A stretch of 64,000 bases of DNA, taken from positions 96,001 to 160,000 of IMG/VR virus record IMGVR_UViG_3300042197_002234; one strand, 5' to 3'. Below, piece by piece: positions 10,503 through 33,543 of this stretch. The DNA is from a virus. The first letter of the stretch is position 1. Each line of letters begins with the position of its first letter. The notes beneath the pieces are model-generated. The model searched no databases. It was not told the DNA's origin and saw only the letters and a program-made list of their open reading frames with translations. A program made the translations under genes and the position numbers.

Positions 10503-10506
10503 CTTA

Positions 10507-12731: not shown

Positions 12732-12780
12732 TTTAAGAAGAATTTTTTAATCTTCCAAATTTTTAAAGAACTTTTTTTTA

Positions 12781-12867
12781 ATTTCAGACTGTGCTACCGT
12801 CACACCTAATTTGATTAATTATGTGGTTAATTAATCTCGGAATTACACCATGTGTCTTTTCTGAAAT
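12781..12867 (-). ncRNA. Small structured RNA (~87 nt)
   Basis: TACCTTTG promoter at 12874-12881; closing stem ATTTCAGA/TCTGAAAT; inner GATTAATT/AATTAATC hairpin. Confidence 0.5.
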
Positions 12868-13036
12868 GTTTTACAAAGGTAATAAAAAAAATGTGTCTGT
12901 CAATACCCTGAGCGATATTTTTTTTTAATTTAATAATAAATATAGCCATTTTGTTAAAAATTCATTTTTTTTTAGCTTGATTGTTGATTTTTTGGTATTT
13001 GTAACCTATTTATTAATCAAATTAAATTATTTAACT

Positions 13037-18689: not shown

Positions 18690-19103
18690 TTAAACCGTAT
18701 GAGGAATTTGAACTCTAACACAATTTTGGGGTAATCTATTAATGTGTCGATAGTTATTAATATATCCCATAATATTTCCTGAACCAATTGCGTTTGCTGA
18801 GTGAACAACAACATCAACCACAGGTTTACCATCCATCCATTCATTAACTAACCATTTAGCCACGTCATAACCCGTTTTTTCCTCAATGTTATCATAGTTT
18901 AGTTCGTAATTCTGATAAACATTACGATGCCACTCAGCCATAGCGGTATCACCTAAATCATGGTCTAATGAAATAATATCGATGTTTTCTAACCCAATTT
19001 CATTTACTTTATCAACAAACTCCTCATAAGAACGGACCACAATCCATTTATTTTCTTCAACAGGAGTTCTAACATCATCCAAATAAATTCTTTTCTTTTC
19101 CAT
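18690..19103 (-). CDS. Cyclic-phosphate-processing receiver-like (cREC) protein
   Basis: IYLDDVRTP, SLDHDLG, TGYDVAKWL, VHSAN motifs. Confidence 0.75.
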   Translation of the reverse strand: MEKKRIYLDDVRTPVEENKWIVVRSYEEFVDKVNEIGLENIDIISLDHDLGDTAMAEWHRNVYQNYELNYDNIEEKTGYDVAKWLVNEWMDGKPVVDVVVHSANAIGSGNIMGYINNYRHINRLPQNCVRVQIPHTV

Positions 19104-19202
19104 TTTTAATAACTTTATCAGCAAATATAATCATAATTTCTGTAATAAAAAACCCCACCTATTGGATGGGGTTAATATTTTGAAACCTTGTTGTTTTATT
19201 TT

Positions 19203-19952
19203 TTAATATTTTGTACCGCAGTGAGGACAGAATTTATGAGAATCTTTTTTTCTCTTTGTACCACATTCACCACAATATACTTTTAAATCTTTAGATTCAT
19301 AAGGTTTTTGAGAATTAGGTAATATTTTCCATTCTGAAACCACACTTGACCATGTATCAAATTTCATATTTACATATGAAAATTCTTGGTCACTTTTACC
19401 CCCCATCTCAATACGTCCAGTTTCAATTGATTTCACGTTTGAACTGTATTTACAAGACACTTCTGAAGTGTAGTTTGAATTAGTCATTCCTAAACCATTT
19501 GTGGTGAATGTTGGATTATAATACCTTTTATTAGATGAGTCACCTAACCAGTCGTTATAAACCCAGTCAGTAGACCAATTACCACCATAAGATATTTTAG
19601 GTAATGCTTCGTTATAAAACTCAATTCTAACGTCTCCGTTATTTTGAATTGCTTCCATAACTTCCCTTGAATTGGAATCGACTTCATATGTGTCGAATTT
19701 AAATTTACGGGACTCATCCAAATACCTCTCAAGAAATACTCGTTGACCTGGTTTAAGAACAATACCTCCACCTGAGATATAGGTTCCGTTAATTTTTATT
19801 TTAGATAAAACCGTTGTTTTTGTCGGGTTGAATAACTCAATTTCGAATTCATCCCCATTGTTAAGATAGACATTTTGTCCAAATTGTTTAAGACGTTGTT
19901 TGTCTTTTGTGATAAACGCACATGGCGTTGATTGTTTTGTTTGATAATACAT
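19203..19952 (-). CDS. Hypothetical protein with a C-terminal zinc ribbon
   Basis: C-terminal CGECG..FCPHCG. Confidence 0.7.
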   Translation of the reverse strand: MYYQTKQSTPCAFITKDKQRLKQFGQNVYLNNGDEFEIELFNPTKTTVLSKIKINGTYISGGGIVLKPGQRVFLERYLDESRKFKFDTYEVDSNSREVMEAIQNNGDVRIEFYNEALPKISYGGNWSTDWVYNDWLGDSSNKRYYNPTFTTNGLGMTNSNYTSEVSCKYSSNVKSIETGRIEMGGKSDQEFSYVNMKFDTWSSVVSEWKILPNSQKPYESKDLKVYCGECGTKRKKDSHKFCPHCGTKY

Positions 19953-20096
19953 TTTTTCCTTATTTTAATTTTTATGTTTATTGAACCCCACTTCGTTGGT
20001 AGTTAGCCAACTCAACTGTTACAAGAACAGGTGGACCTCATCAACAAGGTTTCAAGGATAAATATAGTAGTATCTGTTTTTTTTGTAAATGTTTTT

Positions 20097-20939
20097 TTAA
20101 TTTGTAGTACAATTAACAAATTCGTATCCATTACTTGTTTTTCTCCAAACAATAAATACAAGTTCAATTTTACTCAAATCCCAATTGGAATTATAATCAA
20201 TAACACGGGACCAATGGTACACCTCACCACTTGACAAATTGTTAAAAATTTCTTCACCGAAAGCTCCTGATGTGGTTGCGGATTTAGCCAATACGTGGTG
20301 ATGAATGTGGGGATTTTGAGAACTACCATTTTGAGATGCCGTAATCTCTTTATGTAAAAATAATGCAGACATGGTATATACACCTGATAAATTTTCAAAG
20401 GATTTAATATACACATTAACATTTAATTTACCAGCGTTTTTACCCGCACCTTGGGTTATGTGACTACCAATAGATAATTTTGGCGTTTGACTATTTTTAT
20501 TTGTTATTTCACCTGGTATTCCTGAAGTACTTGTACCTACAAAATTGTCATTGACAAAGAAATTAGGCGTGCCTGTATACTGCCATTTTGTAGAAAATTC
20601 ATCAACCAAAGGACCGTTGTCAGGTGTGGTTAACCCATCGTTAATTTGTAAAGACATTGCCAACACATTACCTTTATGGTTGTTATATAATTCCTCAAAT
20701 CTAGTGACACCCCATCCACCACAAGGACCACACCAAGTTGCGGTAAATTTACCAAAAATGGAGTTTTGTGTACTATCAACATACACACAAGACCCGTCAT
20801 TTATAATCGCATTTGGGTTATAATTAACCGATTTTGAATCGGTGCATCCTTTAATTGCCGAATCATCATCAACCAATAATGTTGGTTCTTGACAACTAGC
20901 CAATATAAAGAATAATAAAAATAATAAGTAGTTTTTCAT
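20097..20939 (-). CDS. Omp28-like lipoprotein (thioredoxin fold plus Omp28 domain)
   Basis: Lipobox ILASC; GCTD..NYNP..DGSC; TATWCGPC; GTPNFFVN; HHHVL. Confidence 0.7.
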   Translation of the reverse strand: MKNYLLFLLFFILASCQEPTLLVDDDSAIKGCTDSKSVNYNPNAIINDGSCVYVDSTQNSIFGKFTATWCGPCGGWGVTRFEELYNNHKGNVLAMSLQINDGLTTPDNGPLVDEFSTKWQYTGTPNFFVNDNFVGTSTSGIPGEITNKNSQTPKLSIGSHITQGAGKNAGKLNVNVYIKSFENLSGVYTMSALFLHKEITASQNGSSQNPHIHHHVLAKSATTSGAFGEEIFNNLSSGEVYHWSRVIDYNSNWDLSKIELVFIVWRKTSNGYEFVNCTTN

Positions 20940-21006
20940 AATTAATTTTGAAATATTGTATAGATTATATATACATAAATATAATAATTTTTACTTTAAT
21001 TTAAAG

Positions 21007-21504
21007 TTATTTTATTTCAAACGCACAACGGACAACACGACGTTTTTTAATTGCATCTTCAGTGTTACCAATAACAACACCATCTTTAATGGTAAAAGCG
21101 TGACCACGAACAAGAATGAAAAAAGTACCTTTAGGATTTTGTTTTATAAAAGTACCAACGGTCATTTCACGTTTAATTTTTTGACCTTTAACTTTAACTT
21201 CATAAACCAAAGAATTTGCCATCCAATTATTAGTACGATTACCAACTGTATACACACGTTTACCGTTAACTTCAGTATTATTGTCAGACATATTAACCAA
21301 TTTTGATGAGGTCATAAACGTACCTTTTCTTGGTTTTCTTTTAAAATGTTCGGCAACATATTGGTGAGCAAAATCATAGTCAACTTCAAATGACGAGGCA
21401 AAAGCTCTAACAACACAATCATTTGTTTCACCTTTAGCGATTGAGGATTCAAAATATCCTTTAATAGCTTCGTATCTGTTGCAATATGGGAGTCTGTCAT
21501 TCAT
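21007..21504 (-). CDS. Hypothetical protein (DCVVRA..HAF papain-like signature)
   Basis: Start MNDRLP after a TATCTTTG promoter at 21509-21516. Confidence 0.6.
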   Translation of the reverse strand: MNDRLPYCNRYEAIKGYFESSIAKGETNDCVVRAFASSFEVDYDFAHQYVAEHFKRKPRKGTFMTSSKLVNMSDNNTEVNGKRVYTVGNRTNNWMANSLVYEVKVKGQKIKREMTVGTFIKQNPKGTFFILVRGHAFTIKDGVVIGNTEDAIKKRRVVRCAFEIK

Positions 21505-21555
21505 AATACAAAGATACAAAAAAAATCTGAACCAAAAAAATATTGGTAAAAAAAG

Positions 21556-21629
21556 TGGACCCTGCAGGGCTTGAACCTGCGACCCCTGCATTATGAGTGC
21601 AACGCTCTAACCATCTGAGCTAAGAGTCC
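21556..21629 (-). tRNA. tRNA-CAT, probably Ile2 (lysidine type) or elongator Met
   Basis: Cloverleaf GGACTCT/AGGGTCC-A, loop CT-CAT-AA. Confidence 0.85.
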
Positions 21630-21819
21630 TAAAAATAAAAAATGATGTGGGGTATTCCTATTTAGTTTAAATTAACCAGTAGTCTGTTAATGTACACTTG
21701 TTGGTTTTACATCCCCACACCAATAACACACTCATAAGCATTCTACTTCCAGCTCCGAGAAATCGTATCTAACTTAGCCCATCTCACCGCTGTATGGGTA
21801 CTTAAGTTTATGTGTTTTG

Positions 21820-21891
21820 TAGCCCCTACGGGAATCGAACCCGTCTTTTTAGGATGAAAACCTAATGTCCTAACCGATAGACGAAAGGGCC
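21820..21891 (-). tRNA. tRNA-Glu(TTC)
   Basis: Cloverleaf, TTAGG-TT-TTC-AT-CCTAA. Confidence 0.9.
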
Positions 21892-22427
21892 ATAAATAAA
21901 AGGTGTTGAATCATCCCTACGCCATTATAGGAACACCTTTTGTTTTAATATTTGGCGAATTAATATTCCTACCTATATTCCCAAGATTCGTCAGAACATA
22001 GTAACCATCCAAGGTAGGCCTATACTATTACACTCCGTCCATATTTACTCACCTAATCAGATTAGTCATAGGTTTTTCAGATACAGCGTTCAGTGCTACC
22101 CTCAGGACATCTTCACCCTACCCCATAGTTACGTGGTGGTCTCACTCGGAAGAAGAGTGTGTATTGTAGAATTGTCCAGTATTTCTACAACTTGTGGATT
22201 GTATTATGACTAATTAAAGCCCCTAACCCCCTTAATCCATAATGGGGAACTCTTGTTTTAAAGATTCCAACATACCTGAAAGAACTTCCCCTTCTCAGTG
22301 AACACCGTTTATAAGGTGTTATATGTTTTTCACTTTGTGTGTATCTATCCCCCATAGCCCCAAAGACTTCTAGTCGGGGTTCACACACCATAACAGTCGA
22401 GTACTACTGTTAATCGTGGGGTCATTT

Positions 22428-22519
22428 GCTGATTAAAGGGAATCGAACCCAATCCTCCGACCCCGTTTACCCCTATGAGGGGGCCACTAGGGTCAGTATG
22501 CCCATTACATCATAACCAA
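22428..22519 (-). ncRNA. tRNA-like RNA with an extended anticodon arm (92 nt)
   Basis: Acceptor TTGGTTA/TAATCAG, D-arm ATGT/GCAT, TTCGATT T-loop; arm CTGACCC..GCCCC-TCATA-GGGGT..GGGTCGG. Confidence 0.6.
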
Positions 22520-22568
22520 TCGTCAGTTTCGAACCTGACAGTTCAAGGTTAATTACTCCTTGAGTTTG

Positions 22569-22646
22569 TTGCGATTTGTGGACTCGAACCACACAGGGGG
22601 TGCGACCCAACTCGGTTCATGAGACCGACCTTACACCTGTATCGCA
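22569..22646 (-). tRNA. Atypical tRNA-CAT with a truncated D-arm and long variable arm
   Basis: TGCGAT/ATCGCA acceptor, TCGGT-CTCATGA-ACCGA, TGTGG-TTCGAGT-CCACA. Confidence 0.55.
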
Positions 22647-22651
22647 GTTTT

Positions 22652-22736
22652 TGGTACTCGGAGCGGGACTCGAACCCGCACGGACAATGTCCAGCAGATT
22701 TTAAGTCTGCCTTGGCTACCTTTACAACACCCGAGC
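22652..22736 (-). tRNA. tRNA-Leu(TAA), CCA encoded
   Basis: GCAGA-CT-TAA-AA-TCTGC, long variable arm. Confidence 0.9.
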
Positions 22737-22808
22737 GTTTATTTCAAAGAACACTACAAAGATAAAGAACAAATTTCATATGAACAATACCTTTATAATT
22801 TTTTTTTG

Positions 22809-22912
22809 TCCACTCTGTTGGATTCGAACCAACTTACTCACTCTATATTCGGATACTGCAGTATCAGGCGATATAGAGGTCATCGTGTTTTACCACATAA
22901 CACTAAGAGTGA
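22809..22912 (-). ncRNA. tRNA-like RNA with an extended anticodon arm (104 nt)
   Basis: Acceptor TCACTCT/AGAGTGG-A, D-stem GTGT/ACAC, T-arm GTTGG-TTCGAAT-CCAAC; arm CTCTATAT..GATAC-TGCA-GTATC..ATATAGAG. Confidence 0.65.
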
Positions 22913-22917
22913 ATTTG

Positions 22918-22991
22918 TAGTCGGGGTGGGAATTGAACCCACGACCTTGATGATATAAGCATCCTGCTCTCGACCCCTGAGCTACCCGACC
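22918..22991 (-). tRNA. tRNA-Ile(TAT)
   Basis: Cloverleaf, GATG-CT-TAT-AT-CATC. Confidence 0.85.
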
Positions 22992-23207
22992 AAATGCCCC
23001 CACCCTGAGATTCCAGGTGAGTAGATATATCGGTTTTCTTTCTTTCAATAAACCTGTGGGTCTTACCCTCTTAAAATTAGTCAACACTACTGGGAGGGAT
23101 TGTGTCGGTTCCCTTTGTTCCCACGATGTCCCACTCGCGCCGTAGACATTCTGCGGAATCATTCTTAAAGTCTTGATTCGAAGACTCTGAGTATCTCTTA
23201 CTCATTG

Positions 23208-23279
23208 AGCTTCCACCCAGGGTCGAACTGGGGACTACTGATTACAAGTCAGTTATTTTACCTGCTAAACTACAGAAGC
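23208..23279 (-). tRNA. tRNA-Thr(TGT)
   Basis: ACTGA-CT-TGT-AA-TCAGT. Confidence 0.9.
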
Positions 23280-23289
23280 TTATTTATCG

Positions 23290-23436
23290 TATCTCCGATG
23301 GGAATCGAACCCACCTTGTAAATTACTTGTCAATTGCTCTGACTTATCTCTACAAACTAGTATAAGTAGTGTTAGGCCAATTAACCATCATTTACCCACT
23401 CACTGTTTTTGGTGCGACCTCAACAGATACGGAGAT
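23290..23436 (-). ncRNA. Giant tRNA-like RNA (147 nt)
   Basis: Perfect acceptor ATCTCCG/CGGAGAT-A, T-arm GTGGG-TTCGATT-CCCAT, enlarged D-like hairpin and ~75 nt irregular hairpin in the anticodon position. Confidence 0.6.
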
Positions 23437-23442
23437 GTTTTG

Positions 23443-23522
23443 TACCGAAGGAGAGACTCGAACTCTCACGCCATATGCAGATGCTTCTAAAACATCCGTG
23501 TCTACCATTCCACCACTTCGGC
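23443..23522 (-). tRNA. tRNA-Leu(TAG)
   Basis: GATGT-TT-TAG-AA-GCATC. Confidence 0.9.
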
Positions 23523-23633
23523 AATTTGTGGGTAGGGTCCTCCCACATTAGACTTAAGGTTTCGGATTCTTTAAAGACAATTCCTAAATGTCAACCGCCC
23601 GCATGTCCTTCACCTTAAAGCGGGAGCCCCTTA

Positions 23634-23709
23634 TGGAGCGAGAGACGAGATTTGAACTCGCGACCCCAACCTTGGCAAGGTTGTGCTCTACCAACTGAGC
23701 TACTCCCGC
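23634..23709 (-). tRNA. tRNA-Gly(GCC), CCA encoded
   Basis: AACCT-T-GCC-AA-GGTT cloverleaf. Confidence 0.92.
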
Positions 23710-23917
23710 AATTAAAAGAAACTTTCCTTCTACGCTCACCGTAGTTTTGGATTTTACTGATGGTTGGTTCCCCATCACCTGTTATGAGTGCACCATAGAG
23801 CAGGGTCCATCACAGAGTCCTTCGGGTCATGTACCTTCGTTATAGTTGCGACCTATTTGAAGCCGAAGTACCTTTCAACGGTGCTAATCCGTCTTCTGTA
23901 AGGAAAGGTTCTTTTTG

Positions 23918-23990
23918 AGCAGGTGGAGGTAATCGAAACCTCATCTTCAGAGTGGAAATCTGACATAATATGCCATTATACGACACCTGC
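23918..23990 (-). tRNA. tRNA-Gly(TCC)
   Basis: TCAGA-TT-TCC-AC-TCTGA. Confidence 0.88.
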
Positions 23991-24085
23991 GTATTCGAGT
24001 CAGAGTAGTCACGGCCACCTCTGTTCCTTCTGACTCTTATTATAACCGTGGCAAAATGTGGCTCGACCCAAGTTATAATCATTAG

Positions 24086-24160
24086 TTGCGGGGGTAGGAT
24101 TCGAACCTACGTCATTCGGCTTATGAGACCGAGCTGGAACCAACTCCAGTCCACCCCGCC
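24086..24160 (-). tRNA. tRNA-Met(CAT), initiator-like
   Basis: 1:72 mismatch (G.A), TCGGT-CTCATAA-GCCGA. Confidence 0.85.
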
Positions 24161-24165
24161 ATTTG

Positions 24166-24237
24166 CGGTCCGTGCGGGAGTCGAACCCGCCACACTGCCG
24201 TGACAGGGCAGCATTATAGCCGATTAACTAACGGACC
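24166..24237 (-). tRNA. tRNA-Asp(GTC)
   Basis: CTGCC-CT-GTC-AC-GGCAG. Confidence 0.92.
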
Positions 24238-24243
24238 TAATTG

Positions 24244-24318
24244 TGGAGACAGTGGGAATTGAACCCACCACACTTTCCTTGCAAGGGAAAATCGCCAAGC
24301 CTTGGTACATGTGTCCCC
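24244..24318 (-). tRNA. tRNA-Ala(TGC)
   Basis: G3-U70, TTTCC-CT-TGC-AA-GGAAA. Confidence 0.9.
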
Positions 24319-24411
24319 ATTTTTTTTTCTTCACCAATATGTCAAAGAACCTTTATCTTTTTAACAACACTACAAAGTTACAAAAGAAATTTTAAAAAAA
24401 CAACATCCTTG

Positions 24412-24451
24412 AAAAACAAAAAACCCACCTTTTTATGGGTGGGTTTGGTAT
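24412..24451 (-). terminator. Attenuator terminator of tRNA leader 1
   Basis: AAACCCACC-CATAAAAA-GGTGGGTTT-TTTGTTTTT. Confidence 0.85.
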
Positions 24452-24471
24452 TTCATAGTGTTAGTTTAAAA

Positions 24472-24543
24472 TCATACCATACCCACCTGAGTCAATCCTA
24501 TTGCTTCAGTTGTGCCTAAAAGTATGATATCTAAATTTCTCAT
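24472..24543 (-). CDS. Leader peptide 1 (MRNLDIILLGTTEAIGLTQVGMV*) of a putative tRNA-operon attenuator
   Basis: A-rich initiation context; the last codons GGTGGGTATGGTAT pair 13/14 with ATACCAAACCCACC in the terminator 5' arm. Confidence 0.75.
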   Translation of the reverse strand: MRNLDIILLGTTEAIGLTQVGMV

Positions 24544-24616
24544 TTTTTGCGTTATTGTTTTTTCTTAAATATACCCATTTTTAAAAAAGTATCAATATTA
24601 AGTTTAAAAATACCGA

Positions 24617-24811
24617 TTATTTTTTTGCTTCGGTAATTTTTTCTTTAAACTCAAACCTAATTGTATCACCAACACTATACTTTCGATTGGTACCAATAAT
24701 ACCCGTTTCTAAATGATTTTCAGCGTTTTTTACCTCATAGGTATAGGTTCCGTTAACATCAATGTCACAACAAAGAACCAAAAAAAGTTTAATAATTACA
24801 ATCTCTTTCAT
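24617..24811 (-). CDS. Small hypothetical protein with a hydrophobic N-terminus
   Basis: Start MKEIVIIKLFLVLCC. Confidence 0.5.
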   Translation of the reverse strand: MKEIVIIKLFLVLCCDIDVNGTYTYEVKNAENHLETGIIGTNRKYSVGDTIRFEFKEKITEAKK

Positions 24812-24815
24812 ATGA

Positions 24816-25283
24816 TTAATTTTTAGTAAATGATTTATCTGCCCAAGTTTTAGCACCCATACGCTCCCAAATTTGGATATCACACATTTCAGGGAAAGAA
24901 GTTCTCATGTCACCAACAGTCAACACTTCCAAGAACCCTTTGTCAATACCAAACCACTTTCCGCTCTTGGTGGTGTATACGTTCATCCAATGACCGTACT
25001 CATTTTTAACCTGAATGTTAACCAAGGCGTTTTTCTTGAATCCAGCGATTACGTTTTTAGGGTAATCAGTTGTGTCACTCATTGTAATGAAACCAGCCTT
25101 ACATTTTACTGCCACACGAAACTCATATTTTTTATCAGTGTCTTTAATGTGGTTTGACACCATTACGTTTATTAATTTGTCTTTGATTCGAGTTTTGAAT
25201 GAACCGAAGAATACATCTCCAGCCATTGTTCCTACAGTTTCTACGATAATTGAGCTTGGGGTGTTTGTGTTGGTATTTGTCAT
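24816..25283 (-). CDS. Hypothetical protein
   Basis: Start MTNTNTN after a TATCTTTG promoter at 25305-25312. Confidence 0.65.
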   Translation of the reverse strand: MTNTNTNTPSSIIVETVGTMAGDVFFGSFKTRIKDKLINVMVSNHIKDTDKKYEFRVAVKCKAGFITMSDTTDYPKNVIAGFKKNALVNIQVKNEYGHWMNVYTTKSGKWFGIDKGFLEVLTVGDMRTSFPEMCDIQIWERMGAKTWADKSFTKN

Positions 25284-25342
25284 ATTATTTCCGATTTTGT
25301 TATACAAAGATACAACAAAATTTCAAACTACCAAAACTTTTT

Positions 25343-25804
25343 TTAAAAAAGATAAGAATGTCTGTATTGTAATGGAATTGCTAACCCAAAACCCCAATAT
25401 TTTTCATTAGACACACTATAAGCAATTGCTATATCCCATTGATTTCTTTTTTGAGTTATCATCTTTAATGGGTGAAATTTAACCCAAACTTCAGGTTTTA
25501 TTTCTTTATTGGTATTTGGTAATGTATTGAATTTAATACCCGTACCGATAACTAATCCATTTTTTAAAACACCATAATTAATTCCAAATCTGTTTAAATA
25601 AGGGCTTGGATTCATTTGTCCTATCGGTGCTGAAACCATCCACATATTGTAACCTCCTCCCGCATGAATACCAAACCCTTTGGTGTCCAAGTTTTCCATA
25701 GATAACATAAAACTTTGTTCACCAGGAAAATATGTAATACCTGAGTACTGACCCCACACTTTTGACGTAAAAAATAACGTCAATATAAAAATTATTTTTT
25801 TCAT
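25343..25804 (-). CDS. Secreted or outer-membrane beta-rich protein
   Basis: Signal peptide MKKIIFILTLFFTSKVWGQ; alternating aromatic beta-strand pattern. Confidence 0.6.
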   Translation of the reverse strand: MKKIIFILTLFFTSKVWGQYSGITYFPGEQSFMLSMENLDTKGFGIHAGGGYNMWMVSAPIGQMNPSPYLNRFGINYGVLKNGLVIGTGIKFNTLPNTNKEIKPEVWVKFHPLKMITQKRNQWDIAIAYSVSNEKYWGFGLAIPLQYRHSYLF

Positions 25805-25807
25805 TTG

Positions 25808-25893
25808 TGGAAGTGGTAGGATTCGAACCTACAAGTTTACCGCAAGGGACCTGTTTTACAGACAGGCGAGCACACCATTTGCTCAACACTTCC
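25808..25893 (-). tRNA. tRNA-Tyr(GTA)
   Basis: CCTGT-CT-GTA-AA-ACAGG, long variable arm. Confidence 0.92.
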
Positions 25894-26104
25894 AAGTTAG
25901 GAAAGAGGAAGATGGTTCAGTGGACATCCTCTTTTACGATTGGCGTTACTCAGGTGTATATCTCCAAACTCCGATGATACCGACCGATATACACTCTCAT
26001 GTCATAGGTATCACCATTCCCCAATCAACCTATAATTTTAAACTAACACCATGACTCCTTTCGACCTTGCACGAGTCGTATCATTCAACTCTGTGTTAGT
26101 TTTG

Positions 26105-26179
26105 CTCCCTCGACAGGATTCGAACCTGTGACCCAACGGTTAACAGCCGTTTGCTCTAAACCTACTGAGCTACGAAGGA
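26105..26179 (-). tRNA. tRNA-Asn(GTT)
   Basis: AACGG-CT-GTT-AA-CCGTT. Confidence 0.92.
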
Positions 26180-26184
26180 ATTTG

Positions 26185-26255
26185 CACGGATAGAAGGACT
26201 CGAACCTCCACCAACAGTTTTGGAGACTGGGATGCTACCATTACACCATATCCGT
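26185..26255 (-). tRNA. tRNA-Trp(CCA)
   Basis: CAGT-CT-CCA-AA-ACTG. Confidence 0.92.
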
Positions 26256-26262
26256 GTGTTTG

Positions 26263-26336
26263 AGGTCAGAGTCAGATTTGAACTGACGAATACTTGTTTT
26301 GCAGACAAGCCCCTTAAACCACTTGGGTATCTGACC
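26263..26336 (-). tRNA. tRNA-Cys(GCA)
   Basis: CTTGT-CT-GCA-AA-ACAAG, U73. Confidence 0.92.
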
Positions 26337-26393
26337 TTAGAGTGTAGTGGGGGGTACCTCCCCTGTGGTTACTACACATTTAACCCACTTTAG

Positions 26394-26468
26394 TGTCCCC
26401 GACAGGGCTCGAACCTGTGACCCGTACATTAAAAGTGTACTGCTCTAATCCAACTGAGCTACGAAGAC
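26394..26468 (-). tRNA. tRNA-Lys(TTT)
   Basis: GTACA-CT-TTT-AA-TGTAC. Confidence 0.92.
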
Positions 26469-26531
26469 ATAATTTACGGCTCAAAGAATCTGAGTTTGTG
26501 GCTCAGAAACGCCCAATTTTGAGCCGTATTG

Positions 26532-26606
26532 TAGTCAAGGTTGGACTTGAACCAACGACCTTCTGCGTATCAGGCAGACGCTCTAAACCGACTGAGCTAC
26601 ATGACT
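26532..26606 (-). tRNA. tRNA-Ile(GAT)
   Basis: TCTGC-CT-GAT-AC-GCAGA. Confidence 0.92.
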
Positions 26607-26695
26607 ATGTTTTAGTTTTACTGAGCAAATATAACCATTTTTTGGTATATAACGCTCTGTTTTACTATTTTTTTTTTAATATTACCCGACATCAA

Positions 26696-27241
26696 TCATT
26701 TTGATTCAAACTTTTTAATAAAATTTTCACGATAATTGTCAATTATTTGTGAAATTTCACTTCTATACTTTGAGTGTATGTAGTGATGGTGTGTCGGACA
26801 TAACGGTATTAGGTTTTCTATTGAGTTATTAGTATGAACTTCATCGTAGTGGTGAACCGCAACTATTTTATTTTCACCACAAACAACACATTTGTGTTCA
26901 TGATGTTCAAAACAGATTCTACGATAACCATTTTTAGTTTCCGAATATTTACCCCAATTAGGGTTATTTTCACCACTTCTAAAATAAGTATTAGAACAAG
27001 AATGAGAACATGTAACTTTTTCATCTCTATTACCTTTTGAAGTTTCAAAAGATTTGTTACAAACAGGACATTCTTTAATTATTCTATTATAGATTAATTT
27101 TCTACTCCTCAAATGACTAATATCCACCCCATTTTGGTTTATGAATGATTCAAACTTTTTTCTATTTGACCCATTATCATATCCAAACATTTTTATTATC
27201 GCTTCTGACTTAGTTTTCGATGTTTTAATTATATCCTCCAT
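26696..27241 (-). CDS. HNH endonuclease inserted in the tRNA array
   Basis: CPVC..CSHSC zinc finger; CVVCG..VAVHH..H.NN..ENLIPLCPTHH HNH motif. Confidence 0.85.
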   Translation of the reverse strand: MEDIIKTSKTKSEAIIKMFGYDNGSNRKKFESFINQNGVDISHLRSRKLIYNRIIKECPVCNKSFETSKGNRDEKVTCSHSCSNTYFRSGENNPNWGKYSETKNGYRRICFEHHEHKCVVCGENKIVAVHHYDEVHTNNSIENLIPLCPTHHHYIHSKYRSEISQIIDNYRENFIKKFESK

Positions 27242-27304
27242 ACTAATAAATATCTAAATTTGTCGTAAAGTCAAATTTTAATCAAAACTTGTTTAAACGA
27301 TTAG

Positions 27305-27379
27305 TCGGGTAGACTGGACTCGAACCAGCACAATGTCCTCATCCCAAATGAGGCGACCTACCAATTGGTCTACTACCCG
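27305..27379 (-). tRNA. tRNA-Pro(TGG)
   Basis: CCTCA-TT-TGG-GA-TGAGG. Confidence 0.92.
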
Positions 27380-27389
27380 TTACTTTCAG

Positions 27390-27475
27390 CGGAAGGAGAG
27401 GGGCTCGAACCCTCGCGGCTTTGACACCCTAACAGTTTAGCAAACTGCCCCCTTCACCAACTTGGGTACCCTTCC
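27390..27475 (-). tRNA. tRNA-Ser(GCT)
   Basis: CAGT-TT-GCT-AA-ACTG, long variable arm, G73. Confidence 0.92.
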
Positions 27476-27512
27476 TTTTTTTCCGACCTAGCTCGGGAAC
27501 ACACATCGGATG

Positions 27513-27584
27513 TAGTTCTTGAAGGACTTGAACCCTCAATTCCTCGTCCGTAGCGAGACGTGTTATCCATTACACCAAAGAACT
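27513..27584 (-). tRNA. tRNA-Arg(ACG)
   Basis: CTCG-CT-ACG-GA-CGAG. Confidence 0.9.
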
Positions 27585-27588
27585 ATTT

Positions 27589-27678
27589 TGGCGGAAGCGA
27601 AGGGAATCGAACCCCCAACACGCTATTAACGTGCTACTTGTTTTCAAGACAAGCTCCTCGTCCATTCGGACCACTTCC
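27589..27678 (-). tRNA. tRNA-Ser(TGA), CCA encoded
   Basis: CTTGT-CT-TGA-AA-ACAAG, long variable arm. Confidence 0.92.
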
Positions 27679-27782
27679 ATTTTTTTAGGTCGTGACGAAC
27701 CCATCTGTCACTTCTTAATAGATTCTTGTAGTTTACTTACCGCGGTTCAATCCGTTACTAACAGGGAACCCAACCTATTTTG

Positions 27783-27854
27783 GGTGTAGGGACGGTACCG
27801 ACCCGTCTTATCTAGTTCCACAAACTAGTGCATCACCTTAATGCTTCAAACACC
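27783..27854 (-). tRNA. tRNA-His(GTG) with G-1 and an atypical T-loop
   Basis: CTAGT-TT-GTG-GA-ACTAG; G-1:C73; T-loop GTCGGTA; two acceptor mismatches. Confidence 0.8.
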
Positions 27855-28006
27855 ATGTAAAATTGATGGTAATTGGATTTATCAGGAATCCCGTCCACGA
27901 CTTCACACACCATTAGAGAGTTGAGTATTTCTACTTATCCTTAGTGTGTACCCTTGCGTCACGTCTCTCCACGCTTACCAATCTACGCCTTGTACCATCA
28001 ATTTTG

Positions 28007-28140
28007 TAGTCAGGGTCGGACTCGAACCGAATACCGTTCAAGACGGATTAGACAACCTTACGACTCCATAGAACCCACAAGTGTCTGGGACTATTGGTCT
28101 TGGGGACTCGGGTACCATCCCTCATTACGTCCACCTAACT
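28007..28140 (-). ncRNA. Giant tRNA-like RNA (134 nt)
   Basis: Acceptor AGTTAGG/CCTGACT-A, T-arm TCGG-TTCGAGT-CCGA, variable hairpin CCGT-CTTGA-ACGG, long arm tipped by CCCA..TGGG. Confidence 0.6.
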
Positions 28141-28215
28141 ATTTACCCCACTTCACCAGCTTAACGGACTGGCTGCCATGTGGGAGTGGGGGTTTCCTGT
28201 TATTTCAGGACTCCG

Positions 28216-28288
28216 TGGTGAGAGCTGGAATCGAACCAGCGGCACGTAGGGCTTCAACCTACTGCTCTACCTACTGAGCTATCACACC
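28216..28288 (-). tRNA. tRNA-Phe(GAA)
   Basis: GTAGG-TT-GAA-GC-CCTAC. Confidence 0.9.
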
Positions 28289-28449
28289 ATATAAAAAATG
28301 ATAGTGTTGGGATACCCGTCTCGTCCCAATCTTAACTGCTTAATCGTAGTTTTACGAGGCCTCGGCAGAGGGTGTTGAACACTGTGAACCTTACAACTAC
28401 TTTGTCGACTTTCATTGTAAGAGTGACCACTATCAATATTTTTTCTATT

Positions 28450-28525
28450 TCAAAGAACCCTTTTCGTCTGGGGTGTAGGTAACCCTATCAAACCTACACC
28501 CCCATCGTTTGTGAATACAAAGTTA
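28450..28525 (-). promoter_or_regulatory. Internal promoter, GC-rich hairpin and boxA inside tRNA operon 2
   Basis: TAACTTTG 28518-28525; GGGGTGTAGG..CCTACACCCC hairpin; GTTCTTTGA 28450-28458. Confidence 0.7.
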
Positions 28526-28569
28526 CAAAACATTTTTCTAACTAACAAGTACCCACTTATTTTTTTTTG

Positions 28570-28643
28570 TAGTCCCTGTCGGATTCGAACCAACGACCCT
28601 CTGCATGTAAGGCAGATGCTCTAACCAACTGAGCTAAAGGACT
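28570..28643 (-). tRNA. tRNA-Val(TAC)
   Basis: TCTGC-CT-TAC-AT-GCAGA. Confidence 0.92.
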
Positions 28644-28649
28644 ATTAAG

Positions 28650-28719
28650 TTGCGTGTTCGGGGTTCGAACCCGATTGACCTTCCTTATGAGAGAAAGTTC
28701 TTTTCCCCTAAGCCACGCA
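28650..28719 (-). tRNA. tRNA-Met(CAT) with a degenerate D-arm
   Basis: TGCGTG/CACGCA acceptor, TTCT-CTCATAA-GGAA, TCGGG-TTCGAAC-CCCGA. Confidence 0.65.
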
Positions 28720-28726
28720 ATTTATG

Positions 28727-28797
28727 TTACCCCCCAAGGATTCGAACCTCGATTAAGTGGACCAAAACCACTTGTCCTGCCATTAGACGAGAGGGTA
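28727..28797 (-). tRNA. tRNA-Gln(TTG)
   Basis: AGTGG-TT-TTG-GT-CCACT. Confidence 0.92.
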
Positions 28798-28828
28798 ATT
28801 TTAGGTTACCAATATGTCAAAGAACCCG

Positions 28829-28865
28829 TAAAACAAAAAACCCCGAACTTTTTATGGTTCGGGGT
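28829..28865 (-). terminator. Attenuator terminator of tRNA leader 2
   Basis: ACCCCGAAC-CATAAAAA-GTTCGGGGT-TTTTTGTTTT; boxA GTTCTTTGACATATTGGT follows at 28808-28825. Confidence 0.85.
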
Positions 28866-28897
28866 CTGTTATCTGTTTTACTTTCAAATATCCACAA

Positions 28898-28987
28898 TTA
28901 TTCCGAACCAATATTTTGCACACGTGGATACCAGCAATTTTTAAATTGCGACTTACTGATAATGACCATATGTTTATTAGTTCTCAT
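28898..28987 (-). CDS. Leader peptide 2 (MRTNKHMVIISKSQFKNCWYPRVQNIGSE*) of a putative tRNA-operon attenuator
   Basis: Directly after the TAACTTTG promoter (29011-29018); terminal codons TGGTTCGG are complementary to CCGAACCA in the terminator 5' arm/loop. Confidence 0.8.
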   Translation of the reverse strand: MRTNKHMVIISKSQFKNCWYPRVQNIGSE

Positions 28988-29047
28988 TGTATTTTAATTT
29001 ATAAGTATTACAAAGTTAAGAAAAATTTTAGACAAGTCAAACTTTTT

Positions 29048-29305
29048 TTAAAATCTTTTCGCAATTTTAAGAATTGTTTCCTCTTCTTCCCTAGTTAACA
29101 TCAACCTACTGTTAGATAATTTATCCAAAGCGATTCCCCATTCTAACTCCATAATGTTTTTTCGTTCTTCAGGAACATTGTAATAAGTTGGTTTGATATG
29201 ACCATCCTCGGTCAGAATATCAATCAATTCTTTAATTTCTCTTTTTGAACAAGCGTCAACAAAATCGCTTGGGTCTATGTCTACATAAGATTCAAATTCT
29301 GGCAT
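29048..29305 (-). CDS. Hypothetical protein
   Basis: 85 aa ORF. Confidence 0.65.
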   Translation of the reverse strand: MPEFESYVDIDPSDFVDACSKREIKELIDILTEDGHIKPTYYNVPEERKNIMELEWGIALDKLSNSRLMLTREEEETILKIAKRF

Positions 29306-29317
29306 ATTTTTTTAATA

Positions 29318-29551
29318 TTAAATGGTTTCGTCAATTTTATCTTGAATTTCAATAATTTTTGATTCAATGTATCTTTCTAATTTTTCTGACACATTAAGAT
29401 ATTGTTCCCTTAGTTTATGAAATTCTTCATCATTAATTTCTTTAAAAGAACTATAATGCTTGAAACAATAGTGGAATCCTTCCGCACCTATTCTGTATCG
29501 AACCATTTCAAAGTTCTCTAATTCTTCATGTAAATAATCTATATTACTCAT
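29318..29551 (-). CDS. Hypothetical protein
   Basis: 77 aa ORF overlapping the upstream gene. Confidence 0.65.
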   Translation of the reverse strand: MSNIDYLHEELENFEMVRYRIGAEGFHYCFKHYSSFKEINDEEFHKLREQYLNVSEKLERYIESKIIEIQDKIDETI

Positions 29552-30267
29552 TGGTTTAATTTTCTTTTACAGTTATTACAAAATTCTTTACGGTTAGTAC
29601 CATTAACTTTCATTAAACAGTCTTCGTCGTCGCAGTGATTTAGACCAAAGTTGTGACCTAATTCATGATTAGCAACATTCTGTAGGTTAGAAATTCTATA
29701 GTTACCGTTAATCTTTAATTGATAAGTACTAACAACAGCGGCGTCATGGTAAAATCTTGCGTAACCACTAATTAATTCAAGGTTATTCTCATGAGAACAC
29801 AAAGGATGATTAGTAACATATACGTGACGACCATCACCATCACCTTCTTCCAAGTTTAAAGTTTCAAGAGCATTAACATATTCACCGTTAATGAAATAAC
29901 GAGAGCTAGGGTTTGAATGTGGATTACCGATTTTAGTTTCTAAACCGTAAAAATTTTCGATTCCCTGGCAAACAGTCTCCAAATCTTCATGACTGTAATC
30001 ACCAAAACCATGAACATATACAATGTTTTTCGGTTTTTTAGTTTCAGATTTAACAACAGGTTTAGTTGATGGTTTATTTTTTACATCAACTGATTTACCA
30101 TATTTACCTAACTTATGTTCTTTGTCATAAGAATCCGCATATTCAGCAGCACTTTGTTTGAATTTATCAATACTATAGTTGTGTTTTTCGGCAAGTTCAA
30201 ATAAAGAACCAACAATTACTACAACAATACAAAGATTTACAATTGATTTTAATGGTGATGTTTTCAT
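29548..30267 (-). CDS. Membrane-anchored archaemetzincin (M54)-like zinc metalloprotease
   Basis: HELGHNFGLNHC..CLM..FCNNC; N-terminal TM segment. Confidence 0.85.
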   Translation of the reverse strand: MKTSPLKSIVNLCIVVVIVGSLFELAEKHNYSIDKFKQSAAEYADSYDKEHKLGKYGKSVDVKNKPSTKPVVKSETKKPKNIVYVHGFGDYSHEDLETVCQGIENFYGLETKIGNPHSNPSSRYFINGEYVNALETLNLEEGDGDGRHVYVTNHPLCSHENNLELISGYARFYHDAAVVSTYQLKINGNYRISNLQNVANHELGHNFGLNHCDDEDCLMKVNGTNRKEFCNNCKRKLNQ

Positions 30268-30321
30268 ACTACAAAGATACTAAAATTATTTTAACTACCA
30301 AAAAATAATGATAAATATTTG

Positions 30322-30393
30322 TAGGCCCACCAGGACTCGAACCTGGAATAGAAGCTTAGAAGGCTACTGTTATATCCCTTTAACTATGGGCCC
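30322..30393 (-). tRNA. tRNA-Arg(TCT)
   Basis: AGC-CT-TCT-AA-GCT anticodon arm, cloverleaf. Confidence 0.9.
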
Positions 30394-30402
30394 TAATCTA
30401 AA

Positions 30403-30552
30403 TTAGATTTGTTTGATGATGTACTTATGACCTGAATCTGAGTTTTTTTCAAAAAGAGACCTCATTTTTTCAGCCTCTTCTTGAGTTTCAAACTCCATTA
30501 CATCATCTTGACCGTCTAACAAAACAACAGGTAATTCAACGTTAGTTGTCAT
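30403..30552 (-). CDS. Small hypothetical protein
   Basis: MTTNVELPVVLLD..FETQEEAE; co-oriented with tRNA-Arg. Confidence 0.5.
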   Translation of the reverse strand: MTTNVELPVVLLDGQDDVMEFETQEEAEKMRSLFEKNSDSGHKYIIKQI

Positions 30553-30616
30553 CTGTTTAATCATTTTAACTATAATATACATAACACTGTAAAGGTAATA
30601 CAAAAAATTAAAATAA

Positions 30617-31705
30617 TCAAACTCTTTTTTTACCACCAAAAACATTAGGAGTTAAATTAGTTCTATTTGGTCTGACATTTTTTAGCATATTTGCTTGAGC
30701 TGATAATGAGTTTTTCTTTAATTCTAATGTTTCTTGTCTATTTTTGGGTTTGTTTTGTATTACAGGTTTAATATTTTTTTCTGTTGGTTTATATATAGAC
30801 CTATTATTGATAATTTGATTAACTAAATCGTATTTAACAGTATCTTTAATTTTATCTTTATTAGGATTAAATGGTTTATCATTTATTTTAAATAAAATAT
30901 CATTAAGTAAGTTTAAAGATGTTTGTTTATATTCTAAATCAGTATTATTTCTAAAATCATTATCATAATCATAAACTAATTTTAGTTTTTTATAGGGTGG
31001 TAAAGAATATATATATTTAGCAGTTCTACTTTGTAGTGTTGAATCTTTAATCGCCCCAGTTATTGAGTACGATTGATTTTCATGCCAATTATAAATGTAT
31101 GTAATTTCGTTAATAAATTTGTAATGTTCATTACCCGCCATTTCTAACATAGGTAAACCTATTCCAATATCTACTGCAGCTTTTAAATAATCATTTTCAA
31201 AAATTAAATCTTTTAAATTTATTGACCTAAATAAAAAAGCCCTATATGTTCTCATATGTGAAAAATTCCATGGAGTACTTCTAGCTTTGTCAGGATTTGC
31301 TTTACCATAATTCATACTTCTACCATTTGTATCAACCCATTTAGTACCGCAAATCCAAATATTTTGGTCAGTATAGATTTTATTGATTAACCCAAAAACA
31401 TTATTATCCAACAATTTATCATCACCATCAATTTCTATAATAACATCAGCCCATTCAATATCACCATTATTATAAATTATATCTATAAAGTTTTTAGCTT
31501 TGTATTTTTTTTGTTTATTTTTTATTAAAACAAATCTTTCATCACCATCTATTGTTTTTTCTGCGATAGAATACGAATTGTCGGTAGACATATCGTCAAC
31601 AAGATAACAAACAAAATTTGTAAAATATTGATTTTTTATTGAATTTATACAATCTGATATATATTTTTCAGAATTCCAAAATGTTGATACAACTACTAAT
31701 TTCAT
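30617..31705 (-). CDS. Glycosyltransferase family 2
   Basis: VVSTFWNSEKYI..LVDDMSTD..EIDGDD GT-A motifs. Confidence 0.85.
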   Translation of the reverse strand: MKLVVVSTFWNSEKYISDCINSIKNQYFTNFVCYLVDDMSTDNSYSIAEKTIDGDERFVLIKNKQKKYKAKNFIDIIYNNGDIEWADVIIEIDGDDKLLDNNVFGLINKIYTDQNIWICGTKWVDTNGRSMNYGKANPDKARSTPWNFSHMRTYRAFLFRSINLKDLIFENDYLKAAVDIGIGLPMLEMAGNEHYKFINEITYIYNWHENQSYSITGAIKDSTLQSRTAKYIYSLPPYKKLKLVYDYDNDFRNNTDLEYKQTSLNLLNDILFKINDKPFNPNKDKIKDTVKYDLVNQIINNRSIYKPTEKNIKPVIQNKPKNRQETLELKKNSLSAQANMLKNVRPNRTNLTPNVFGGKKRV

Positions 31706-31769
31706 AAAAAAGGGGTATGGTCTATTTATAAATAGGTTCACTAACTTATTTTTTAAAAAATATCATAAA

Positions 31770-32339
31770 ATGTCTGAAAACAAATACATAATTCCTTCGC
31801 CGAGAGTGTTTCATGTTATACCGTGGAATAGTGACAAAAATATTGGTAAGTCATATAATGAGATGATGGCGATGGTTAGAAGTAATGATTGGGTTTGTTT
31901 TTTAGATGGAGATGCGGTTCACACAACATCATTTTTTGGTGTTAGGATTGAGGAGGTAATTAAAAATAATCCTGATTATTCTTTATTTACTTGTTACACA
32001 AATAGGGTTGGGTGTGGTTATCAAATCGCACCTGGTGTTGACTCTAAATCTAACGACCAACAATACCATAGAAATTTTGGGGAGTTACTTTGGAATAACA
32101 ATGGTACCCAAGTTTTCGATGTAACAAAACAATCTCCAATGAGTGGGGTTTTACTACTTATTAAAAAATCATCATGGGAACAGGTTGGGGGGTTTAAGGA
32201 AGATAAAATGTTAACGGTGGATAATGATATTCACATAAAATTTACAAAAGCAGGTTTTAAATCGGGGCTAATGAAAGGTATATATGTACAACATTGGTAT
32301 AGAGGTAATAATCCTGGAAATAAATCACATTTATTATGA
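31770..32339 (+). CDS. GT-A fold glycosyltransferase-like protein
   Basis: WVCFLDGD, SGVLLLI..W..VGGF, VQHWY. Confidence 0.7.
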   Translation: MSENKYIIPSPRVFHVIPWNSDKNIGKSYNEMMAMVRSNDWVCFLDGDAVHTTSFFGVRIEEVIKNNPDYSLFTCYTNRVGCGYQIAPGVDSKSNDQQYHRNFGELLWNNNGTQVFDVTKQSPMSGVLLLIKKSSWEQVGGFKEDKMLTVDNDIHIKFTKAGFKSGLMKGIYVQHWYRGNNPGNKSHLL

Positions 32340-32935
32340 TATATAAATTTTTAGATGTTGGGTGTAAAGTTGGGGGTTCTTTTGATGTTTCTAAAAAATT
32401 TGGTTACACCAAAAATGAAGGTCTTGGTATTGATATAAATGAAGAACACGTTAAAAAATTCATTAATTCAGGTTATAATGGATTGGTTGCGGATGCAACT
32501 AATTTACCTTTTGATGATAATTCATTTGAATTAGTTATTTTTAGTCATGTTTTAGAACATTTACCTAATGAAGAATTAGGAAAAAAAGCCCTTGATGAAT
32601 GTTTGAGAGTTTCTTCTAAACATGTTTTTTTAGCTTTACCTTTTTTTGATGAGGACGAGTATTTAAACTCTTTAAGATTAAAAACTTACTATTCAGATTG
32701 GACGGGTCATAAAAATAAAGTTCATCTTAAAACAATTTTAGAAAATTATCTTAAAAATTACAAATACGATTTAACTTTAAAAACTAAAATAACTGATAGC
32801 GGATTTCCTGAAATATTACCTATAGAAGCACCTAAAAATTCCCATAATTATGATGAAAAAATACACAGTAAAAAAGAAAAAATATTTTTTGACCGAGATA
32901 TTTGGAGGGAGTATATAATTTTAATTAAAAAATGA
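32336..32935 (+). CDS. Class I SAM-dependent methyltransferase
   Basis: FLDVGC..G, GIDI, ADATNLPF..SHVLEHL. Confidence 0.85.
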   Translation: MIYKFLDVGCKVGGSFDVSKKFGYTKNEGLGIDINEEHVKKFINSGYNGLVADATNLPFDDNSFELVIFSHVLEHLPNEELGKKALDECLRVSSKHVFLALPFFDEDEYLNSLRLKTYYSDWTGHKNKVHLKTILENYLKNYKYDLTLKTKITDSGFPEILPIEAPKNSHNYDEKIHSKKEKIFFDRDIWREYIILIKK

Positions 32936-33543
32936 TTAAATACTCAGTAATTATACCAACAATGTGGTTCTCAAATAAAATTGAATTAATTGTAAAAAAT
33001 TTTAATTCAAGTCAGTTTGTTGATGAAATTATTATAATAGATAATAAAACTGAAAATTCGATTGAGTTGTCTCATTATGAAAAAGTTATACATATTAAAA
33101 ATAAAAAAAATATATTTGTAAATCCTTCTTGGAATTTAGGTGTAAATTTATCTAAAAATGAAAATTTAATAATTTCTAATGATGATATCTTAATTAATGA
33201 TATTGATAGGGTATTAAGTAATAAAGAAATATTTGATTGTGATTTAGTTGGGTTAGATTACGAGAATATTAATAAAAATAATACAGTTATTTTAAAAGAA
33301 ACTAAAAAACATATGGAAAGAGGTTTTGGTTGTTTCTTAATAATTAAAAAAAAATCTTACGTTAATATACCCGAAATATTAAAAATTTGGTTCGGGGACA
33401 ATTTTTTATTCAATAAAGTTAAAAATAAAAAAATGTTTTCGTGTGATAAAATAGAGATTGAGTTGTCAAAAACAATTAAAAATATTAATGGGGTTAATGA
33501 TATATTAAATCAAGATAAAAAAAATTTTTTAAAAGTGTTATGA
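32932..33543 (+). CDS. Glycosyltransferase family 2-like
   Basis: SVIIPT..IIIIDN..N.G..SNDDI. Confidence 0.8.
   Translation: MIKYSVIIPTMWFSNKIELIVKNFNSSQFVDEIIIIDNKTENSIELSHYEKVIHIKNKKNIFVNPSWNLGVNLSKNENLIISNDDILINDIDRVLSNKEIFDCDLVGLDYENINKNNTVILKETKKHMERGFGCFLIIKKKSYVNIPEILKIWFGDNFLFNKVKNKKMFSCDKIEIELSKTIKNINGVNDILNQDKKNFLKVL

Follow-up and report, generated by a model that had tools for sequence, protein, structure and literature searches.

Candidate leader-peptide attenuators with codons matched to the downstream tRNA arrays in a metagenomic phage and its relatives

Several amino-acid operons of enterobacteria are controlled by leader-peptide attenuators, such as those of ilvGMEDA (Ile, Val and Leu) and thr (Thr and Ile), and the leaders trpL, hisL, leuL and pheL belong to the same group. 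Feedback based on decoding speed is known for these amino-acid operons and for one synthetase operon, pheST of Escherichia coli, in which an attenuator with the pheM leader controls phenylalanyl-tRNA synthetase. The transfer RNA (tRNA) genes of phages are usually seen as static aids to codon usage or as spares against tRNA-cleaving defences, and to our knowledge little is known about how their expression is controlled. Here, two tRNA arrays are described from a 64,000-nt stretch of viral DNA (the window), comprising bases 96001–160000 of the single 195.5-kb contig IMGVR_UViG_3300042197_002234 of IMG/VR (G+C 31.6%). Each array follows a short leader open reading frame (ORF), whose codons list the amino acids of that array, an intrinsic terminator and a boxA-like 19-mer. 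From the sequence, it is quite likely that a transcription attenuator of the ribosome-mediated (leader-peptide) kind stands before each array, and the phage would probably make the tRNA set only when decoding of its codons is slow.

The class of mechanism is a textbook one. As in the enterobacterial attenuators, a short leader ORF is combined with an intrinsic terminator and with an antiterminator strand that the ribosome would mask at the stop codon, and the phage units resemble ilvL both in leader length (22–37 codons) and in the sensing of more than one amino acid. Unlike the enterobacterial systems, they have tRNA genes as targets instead of biosynthetic enzymes, their leaders hold 8–17 amino acids with 1–3 codons each, not repeated codons for one or a few amino acids, and they are phage-encoded, with a boxA downstream and several units per genome dividing the tRNA set. 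The pheST operon is similar in that leader-peptide attenuation acts on part of the translation machinery, so that decoding capacity is under feedback, but it senses one amino acid, has a protein gene as target and is cellular. T-box riboswitches also let tRNA status select between terminator and antiterminator ahead of translation-related genes; they differ in binding one uncharged tRNA directly and in containing no ORF. Moreover, the 19-mer recalls the boxA of rrn leaders and Nus antitermination, also in being placed early in long untranslated RNA operons, but the phage motif lies downstream of the attenuator and ahead of tRNA, transfer-messenger RNA (tmRNA) and other RNA genes, with putative binding of NusB/NusE. 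An earlier note on this DNA, made from the sequence alone, knew of no described equivalent; likewise, the full-text literature, from whose coverage most subscription journals are absent, gave no description of leader peptides or attenuation before tRNA genes or arrays. What is new is the tRNA-gene target, the breadth of 8–17 species per leader, the coupling to boxA and the viral setting.

Leader ORFs and tRNA arrays of the window

The order ORF, antiterminator, terminator, 19-mer and array was found twice in the window, both times on the minus strand, to which all coordinates below refer unless another strand is given. Leader ORF 2 (28898..28987; 29 codons and a stop) precedes array 2 (25807..28797), for which ARAGORN at its default setting reports tRNAs for Gln, Val, Phe, Ser(tga), Arg(acg), Ser(gct), Pro, Ile(gat), Lys, Cys, Trp, Asn and Tyr. 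Leader ORF 1 (24472..24543; 23 codons and a stop) precedes array 1 (21555..24316), reported as Ala, Asp, CAT, Gly(tcc), Gly(gcc), Leu(tag), Thr, Ile(tat), Leu(taa), Glu and CAT; by their sequences, the first of the two CAT tRNAs is initiator-like and the last resembles Ile2. Two additional genes of array 2 were weaker: tRNA-His(gtg) at 27783–27853 scored 30.2 bits with Rfam and was reported by ARAGORN only at a relaxed threshold, and a degenerate tRNA whose anticodon loop reads CAT, placed between Gln and Val (28650–28719), scored 22.7 bits, under the Rfam cut-off. Once these two are counted, none of the 20 amino acids is missing from the two arrays together, and Met and Ile are the only ones found in both. 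ARAGORN placed all tRNA genes of the contig on the minus strand and within 21555–30393, the 25 default predictions being 13 in 28797–25807, 11 in 24316–21555 and a lone tRNA-Arg(tct). The latter (30321..30393) reads AGA, the second codon of both leaders, and no leader was seen for it.

Codons 4–26 of leader 2 specify only amino acids of array 2, and codons 4–18 of leader 1 only amino acids of array 1. Conversely, the amino acids of each array are all represented in its own leader; in leader 2 every one of them has appeared by codon 22, codons 23–26 repeating earlier ones only. For the quantitative comparisons, each ORF was split into a core and a tail at the start of the antiterminator strand. 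In the core of leader 2, 22 of 25 residues match array 2 (24 of 25 with the His and CAT tRNAs included), and in that of leader 1, 15 of 17 match array 1. No other small ORF equalled the combined precision and recall of the leaders for their own arrays among the 700 ATG-initiated ORFs of 20–40 codons in the 195.5-kb genome. The probability of such a match in a random peptide, computed on the whole peptide, was 7.5e-6 for leader 2 and 1e-3 for leader 1.

Most of what the earlier note had read in these two leaders was recovered. Its amino-acid lists for the two tRNA groups were confirmed, the His and 'Met' genes being real but weak, and both leaders start with ATG AGA. They also divide the amino acids as the arrays do, each ORF listing the set of its own array. 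Its estimate of about 1e-5 for each match by chance holds for leader 2 and is too small a value for leader 1.

Leader codons and array content across phages

Comparable units were defined by an intrinsic terminator, a same-strand tRNA within 700 nt and the longest ATG-initiated ORF ending at most 60 nt upstream of the terminator. Such leader units were recovered in most loci carrying the 19-mer, on dozens of viral contigs, and clustering left 21 non-redundant units, each with at least six distinct tRNA amino acids downstream. ATG-initiated leader ORFs of 22–37 codons were present in 21/21. As a null, arrays were permuted among units 20000 times, and none of the permutations reached the observed value for any measure. 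Whole-peptide precision was 0.757 against a null of 0.584, and recall 0.943 against 0.755; at the codon level, 77% of core codons could be decoded by the own array (null 51%), and 88% of the anticodons of the own array had a cognate core codon (null 61%). Hence both expectations attached to the proposal in the earlier note were borne out across genomes: homologous leaders are conserved as ORFs before a terminator and a tRNA array, and their codons co-vary with the downstream anticodons.

The correspondence is confined to one part of the ORF. Core residues matched in 388 of 477 cases (81%) and those of the antiterminator-forming tail in 76 of 131 (58%; Fisher p 1e-7), the latter being as frequent as under the null. 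Such a contrast is expected if the ORF consists of a sensing part and, after it, a structural part. In genomes with two units, the residues that discriminate between the arrays pointed to the own array 171 times and to the other 65 times. The leaders also predicted tRNAs missed by the default search, and they can be regarded as a sequence-readable label of array content: among 20 tRNAs reported by ARAGORN only under relaxed settings, 11 carried an amino acid present in the leader and absent from the default list, compared with 45 of 400 (11%) when other leaders were used. The tRNA-His of the window is one of these 11.

The match held for very different partitions of the tRNA set. For example, the leader at L040:10820–10915 had a core in which 25/25 residues matched and a recall of 14/14 amino acids, and the second leader of the same locus (L040:7749–7853) lists a different set, namely Leu, Arg, Pro, Asn, Tyr, Gly, Gln and Ser. 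In L024, 25/25 core residues matched with a recall of 17/17. The leader of L010 contains, before the antiterminator, only Asn, His, Trp, Ser, Ile, Met and Arg, and that of L027 is rich in Ser, Leu and Thr, ahead of an array of three Ser, four Leu and one Thr tRNA. Differing partitions were similarly tracked in L030, L035, L046 and L055. A second scan of viral sequences with the rrn-type motif, intended as a held-out set, gave few loci with tRNAs, of which L109 and L118 alone were informative; both fit the pattern, and L109, found through a second boxA variant, tracks yet another partition.

The leader sequences themselves differ widely, since residue order is not conserved and composition follows the array. 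This bears on the idea that the leaders are functional micropeptides, or that their translation controls the processing or stability of the tRNA precursor instead of termination. Conservation of the leaders as ORFs would be expected under this idea, but what is conserved is composition without residue order, the C-terminal residues are dictated by RNA pairing, and there is no common peptide motif past the first few codons, which makes it very unlikely.

The choice among synonymous codons was also informative, as 76 of 93 Leu, Ser and Arg codons fell in the box served by the isoacceptors of the array. A codon-by-codon match to the anticodons, including these boxes, is what feedback by the product predicts, and it argues against an attenuator of the same build that reports amino-acid charging or general translation stress instead of tRNA abundance, the arrays being induced by starvation-like states and not by loss of tRNA. 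All of the unit anatomy is equally compatible with the latter, and ribosomes stall alike whether a tRNA is missing or uncharged, as established for trp- and his-type attenuators. Nevertheless, extra tRNA would give no relief from amino-acid starvation, and sensing of charging or stress is judged a rather unlikely alternative to sensing of tRNA supply.

With regard to cultured phages, relatives sought by DNA similarity in a phage collection gave tRNA-level or very short matches only. The cultured Caulobacter phage phiCbK has a 45-codon ORF and a terminator directly before a tRNA block (JX100813 49540–49771, corresponding to L098:3041–3272). This ORF is rich in Ser, Leu, Ala, Lys, Pro and Thr, and the block reads Pro-Pro-Lys-Lys-Leu-Leu-Leu-Ala-Ser-Ser. 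No annotation of the leader-like ORF was seen in that part of record JX100813, and a simple detector found no units at the other tRNA blocks of phiCbK; to judge from the sequence, this phage seems to carry at least one such leader unit, with a candidate at JX100813 49541–49678. We lean towards codon-matched leader attenuators being a general and so far undescribed phage principle, in which each tRNA bank would be gated by a translated 'table of contents'.

Alternative pairing, boxA-like motif and promoter-like sites

In leader 2, folding predicted that the final ORF codons (28903..28910) form the 5′ strand of an antiterminator by pairing with 28862–28855, a segment that overlaps the 5′ arm of intrinsic terminator 2 (28828..28867; 11-bp GC-rich stem, loop CATAAAAA and T tract). 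This 8-nt Watson-Crick run was matched by none of 2000 shuffles. In leader 1, the corresponding strand (24474..24487) extends up to the stop codon and pairs with 24451–24438, including the 5′ arm of intrinsic terminator 1 (24412..24446; 9-bp GC-rich stem, loop CATAAAAA and T tract), the fold having an energy of –19.7 kcal/mol and a z of –3.2. For these alternative-pairing folds, the terminator 3′ arm was omitted. Two further claims of the earlier note were therewith substantiated, the terminator loop shared by both units and the antiterminator at the stop codon, in that the last ORF codons pair with the terminator 5′ arm in both leaders. In the minimum-energy fold of leader 1, codons 4–9 pair with the stop region.

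The same arrangement was general in the comparison set. The terminator 5′ arm pairs over at least 6 nt with a segment in the final 0–31 nt of the ORF in 21/21 units, and the distance from stop codon to terminator stem was 21–37 nt in all 21. The longest Watson-Crick run had a mean of 6.8 nt, against 4.0 for shuffled tails and about 3.9 for a neighbouring core window (combined p 4e-18). The antiterminator helix of the leader-1 family had 90% of its cells paired, compared with 41–65% when the helix was slid by 1–3 columns; two-sided changes occurred in three pairs, and the covariation score was reached by 0/500 shuffles, in an alignment where leader 1 of the window and L023 were out of register with the other eight rows and their cells were partly counted as unpaired. 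As judged from these predicted pairings, the geometry is that of trp/ilv-type attenuation. A pyrBI-type arrangement, in which the ribosome melts the terminator directly, was rejected, the stop codon lying 21–37 nt upstream of the stem, which is too far.

A leader RNA that binds tRNAs directly and without translation, in the manner of a T-box, would equally link tRNA status to the choice between terminator and antiterminator. It appears barely credible here: a search of Rfam at E values up to 1 over 19000–33000 gave no T-box or other riboswitch family in the leaders, the leaders begin with a start codon and stay in frame up to a stop whose spacing to the terminator is constant, and up to 17 successive 'specifiers' would be without precedent.

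Following leader-peptide attenuation, we infer a sequence of events in which the promoter would start a short transcript and the leader ORF would be translated at once, its sense codons upstream of the antiterminator naming, one by one, those that the downstream tRNAs read. When decoding is fast, the ribosome at the stop codon would cover the antiterminator 5′ strand, the terminator would form and transcription would end. When aminoacyl-tRNA is scarce for any listed codon, the ribosome would lag and the 3′ end of the ORF would pair with the terminator 5′ arm, so that stalling leads to read-through. The polymerase would then pass the rrn-like boxA, probably loading Nus factors that protect the long untranslated transcript, and the array would be transcribed. 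The outcome would be a negative feedback on tRNA supply as the sensed quantity, with one loop per tRNA bank, each acting as an OR gate over 8–17 tRNA species.

If this is true, tRNA genes would be feedback-regulated by the decoding speed of their own codons, and the phage would have closed-loop control of its decoding capacity, with the possibility of responding to host tRNA depletion caused by codon-usage mismatch, host shut-off or anticodon-nuclease defences. It would also explain the grouping of phage tRNAs into banks. Moreover, cryptic or non-canonical tRNAs of an array could be predicted from its leader, and the leaders could be used as compact sensors of decoding capacity with multiple inputs.

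The 19-mer GGTTCTTTGACATATTGGT is identical behind both terminators, as stated in the earlier note, which had taken it for a boxA with an extension; it lies at 28808..28826, 14 nt past terminator 2 and 10 nt ahead of tRNA-Gln, and at 24333..24351 before array 1. The exact 19-mer was found in 57 IMG/VR contigs, and in 49 of them a same-strand tRNA follows within 700 nt, often after just 6–13 nt. In bacterial genomes, it was found on 19 contigs, mostly metagenome-assembled genomes (MAGs) of Bacteroidota, as singletons or at the ends of repeated elements, and examination of the flanking DNA showed no ribosomal RNA (rRNA) gene adjacent to it in any of the 19. As these bacterial matches were uninformative, the boxA reading was tested upstream of the 16S rRNA genes of Bacteroidia, where a GTTCTTTGAAAATATTGG-like motif occurs 104–141 nt upstream in 9 of 20 genomes. 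The phage 19-mer differs from GTTCTTTGAAAATATTGG by one substitution and one missing base, and this near-identity supports the boxA reading. By analogy, the 19-mer would serve as a boxA of the rrn type and protect polymerase from termination along these long untranslated transcripts.

BoxA-like motifs also precede the phage tmRNA and other RNA genes. The tmRNA gene (10108–10505, plus strand; Rfam RF00023, 68.7 bits) was missed by ARAGORN, and the boxA-like motif GTTCTTTAACATA lies immediately before it, at 10092–10104. A GOLLD RNA (RF02032, 327.7 bits) occupies 11553–11961 on the minus strand; upstream of it, at about 12400–12880 on the same strand, there are two repeated cassettes, each with a promoter-like site, a 45-nt leader and a boxA-like motif, within a 1.8-kb stretch without long ORFs. 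Among the bacterial matches, L063, L065–L067 and L070–L072 (MAGs of Lentimicrobiaceae and other Bacteroidota) have the exact 19-mer near the end of a repeated element of about 120 nt at several contig ends, and in five Bacteroidales MAGs the 19-mer is followed by TTACACG and then by a promoter-like site.

Promoter-like sites were found by consensus match ahead of both leaders. That of leader 2 (29011..29040) consists of TTG, 19 nt and TAACTTTG, of the Bacteroidota –33/–7 type, and that of leader 1 (24568..24595) of TTGATA, 16 nt and TATATT, a layout shared by related units; most of these have a similar site 23–55 nt upstream of the leader ATG. Because of the TTG/TAnnTTTG-type promoter-like sites, an ORF of the Omp28 family and the rrn-like boxA, the sequence points to a Bacteroidota host. 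The phage was present in 20 sequencing runs, all of them DNA metagenomes and mostly from freshwater.

Additional candidate sites, likewise matched to the consensus, lie downstream of the attenuators. One is placed between terminator 1 and its boxA-like motif (24373..24403); similar sites are kept in many related units and missing in L003 and L041, whose 19-mer comes straight after the terminator. Each array also has an internal candidate, in array 2 between tRNA-Val and tRNA-Phe (28548–28518, with a boxA-like motif at 28457–28448) and in array 1 just upstream of tRNA-Leu(taa) (22787–22757, with a boxA-like motif at 22751–22742). A pattern scan gave no promoter-like site between the terminator of leader 2 and tRNA-Gln. 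The earlier note had described the arrays as two operons: both arrays stand, but the sites after terminator 1 and within both arrays mean that they are not simple units.

On the basis of these downstream sites, the hairpins could be ordinary terminators or insulators of upstream units, with downstream promoters driving the arrays and the small ORFs arising by chance or remaining untranslated, and ORFs of this length are indeed common in AT-rich DNA. Such an arrangement is extremely unlikely to account for the units, however: ORF content tracks the array across differing partitions, a match that 0/20000 permutations attained, and does so only ahead of the antiterminator strand; the 21–37 nt from stop codon to terminator are kept in all units; and leader 2, L003 and L041 have no promoter-like site between terminator and array.

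Some observations weigh against attenuation as proposed here, or limit its reach. Because of the promoter-like sites at 24403–24373, 28548–28518 and 22787–22757, much of the array transcription may bypass the attenuators, which would then control only part of it; the attenuator units of the circuit envisaged in the earlier note are retained, but calling it phage-wide was an overstatement given this possible bypass. Within the window, codons 2–3 of the leaders (Arg AGA, followed by Thr or Asn) are foreign to their own arrays, and an ATC codon in leader 1 is decoded by the Ile tRNA from array 2. Regarding structure, the antiterminator is an interrupted helix in a few units, and, as regards a putative 1:2 (anti-antiterminator) helix, the leader 2 fold showed no clear counterpart to the pairing of codons 4–9 with the stop region in leader 1. 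In the comparison set, the match is weak in some units, such as L023:4785–4856, L015 and L048, partly because some of their arrays are truncated at the edge of the locus; the 21 units are related by descent, by which the permutation counts overstate significance somewhat. Finally, every unit was found through one motif, save those of L109 and phiCbK, and breadth beyond Bacteroidota-type phages therefore rests on the partial check in phiCbK.

Other RNAs and genes within the arrays

Array 2 is interrupted between tRNA-Pro and tRNA-Ile by an HNH-like ORF of 181 aa (26696–27241) with a weak match to HNH_2 (E 0.005), which may encode a homing endonuclease. In array 1, a freshwater-1 RNA (RF02979, 76.3 bits, above the cut-off) lies between the two tRNA-Gly genes (23752–23814). 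Two degenerate tRNA-like sequences (22428–22519 and 22571–22645) follow downstream of tRNA-Leu(taa); one was reported only by relaxed ARAGORN and has a 19-nt insert in the anticodon region, and the other is an 18-bit tRNA-Sec-like match.

Between a degenerate tRNA-like sequence and tRNA-Glu, array 1 also contains a structured RNA of about 450–530 nt (21892–22445), for which no Rfam match was found even at E 10. It is present in 19 IMG/VR contigs, and compensatory changes were observed in 22 of 74 predicted pairs among 13 non-redundant copies that were 64–88% identical. This RNA ends in a terminator-like hairpin, and some copies have their own promoter-like site. Furthermore, the spacers between tRNAs at 25894–26103, 27854–28214, 28289–28568 and 22992–23206 have a G+C content of 0.38–0.47, above that of the genome, and are conserved in the distant contigs L023, L007, L008, L016, L022, L032 and L047; such spacers may contain further small RNAs or processing signals.

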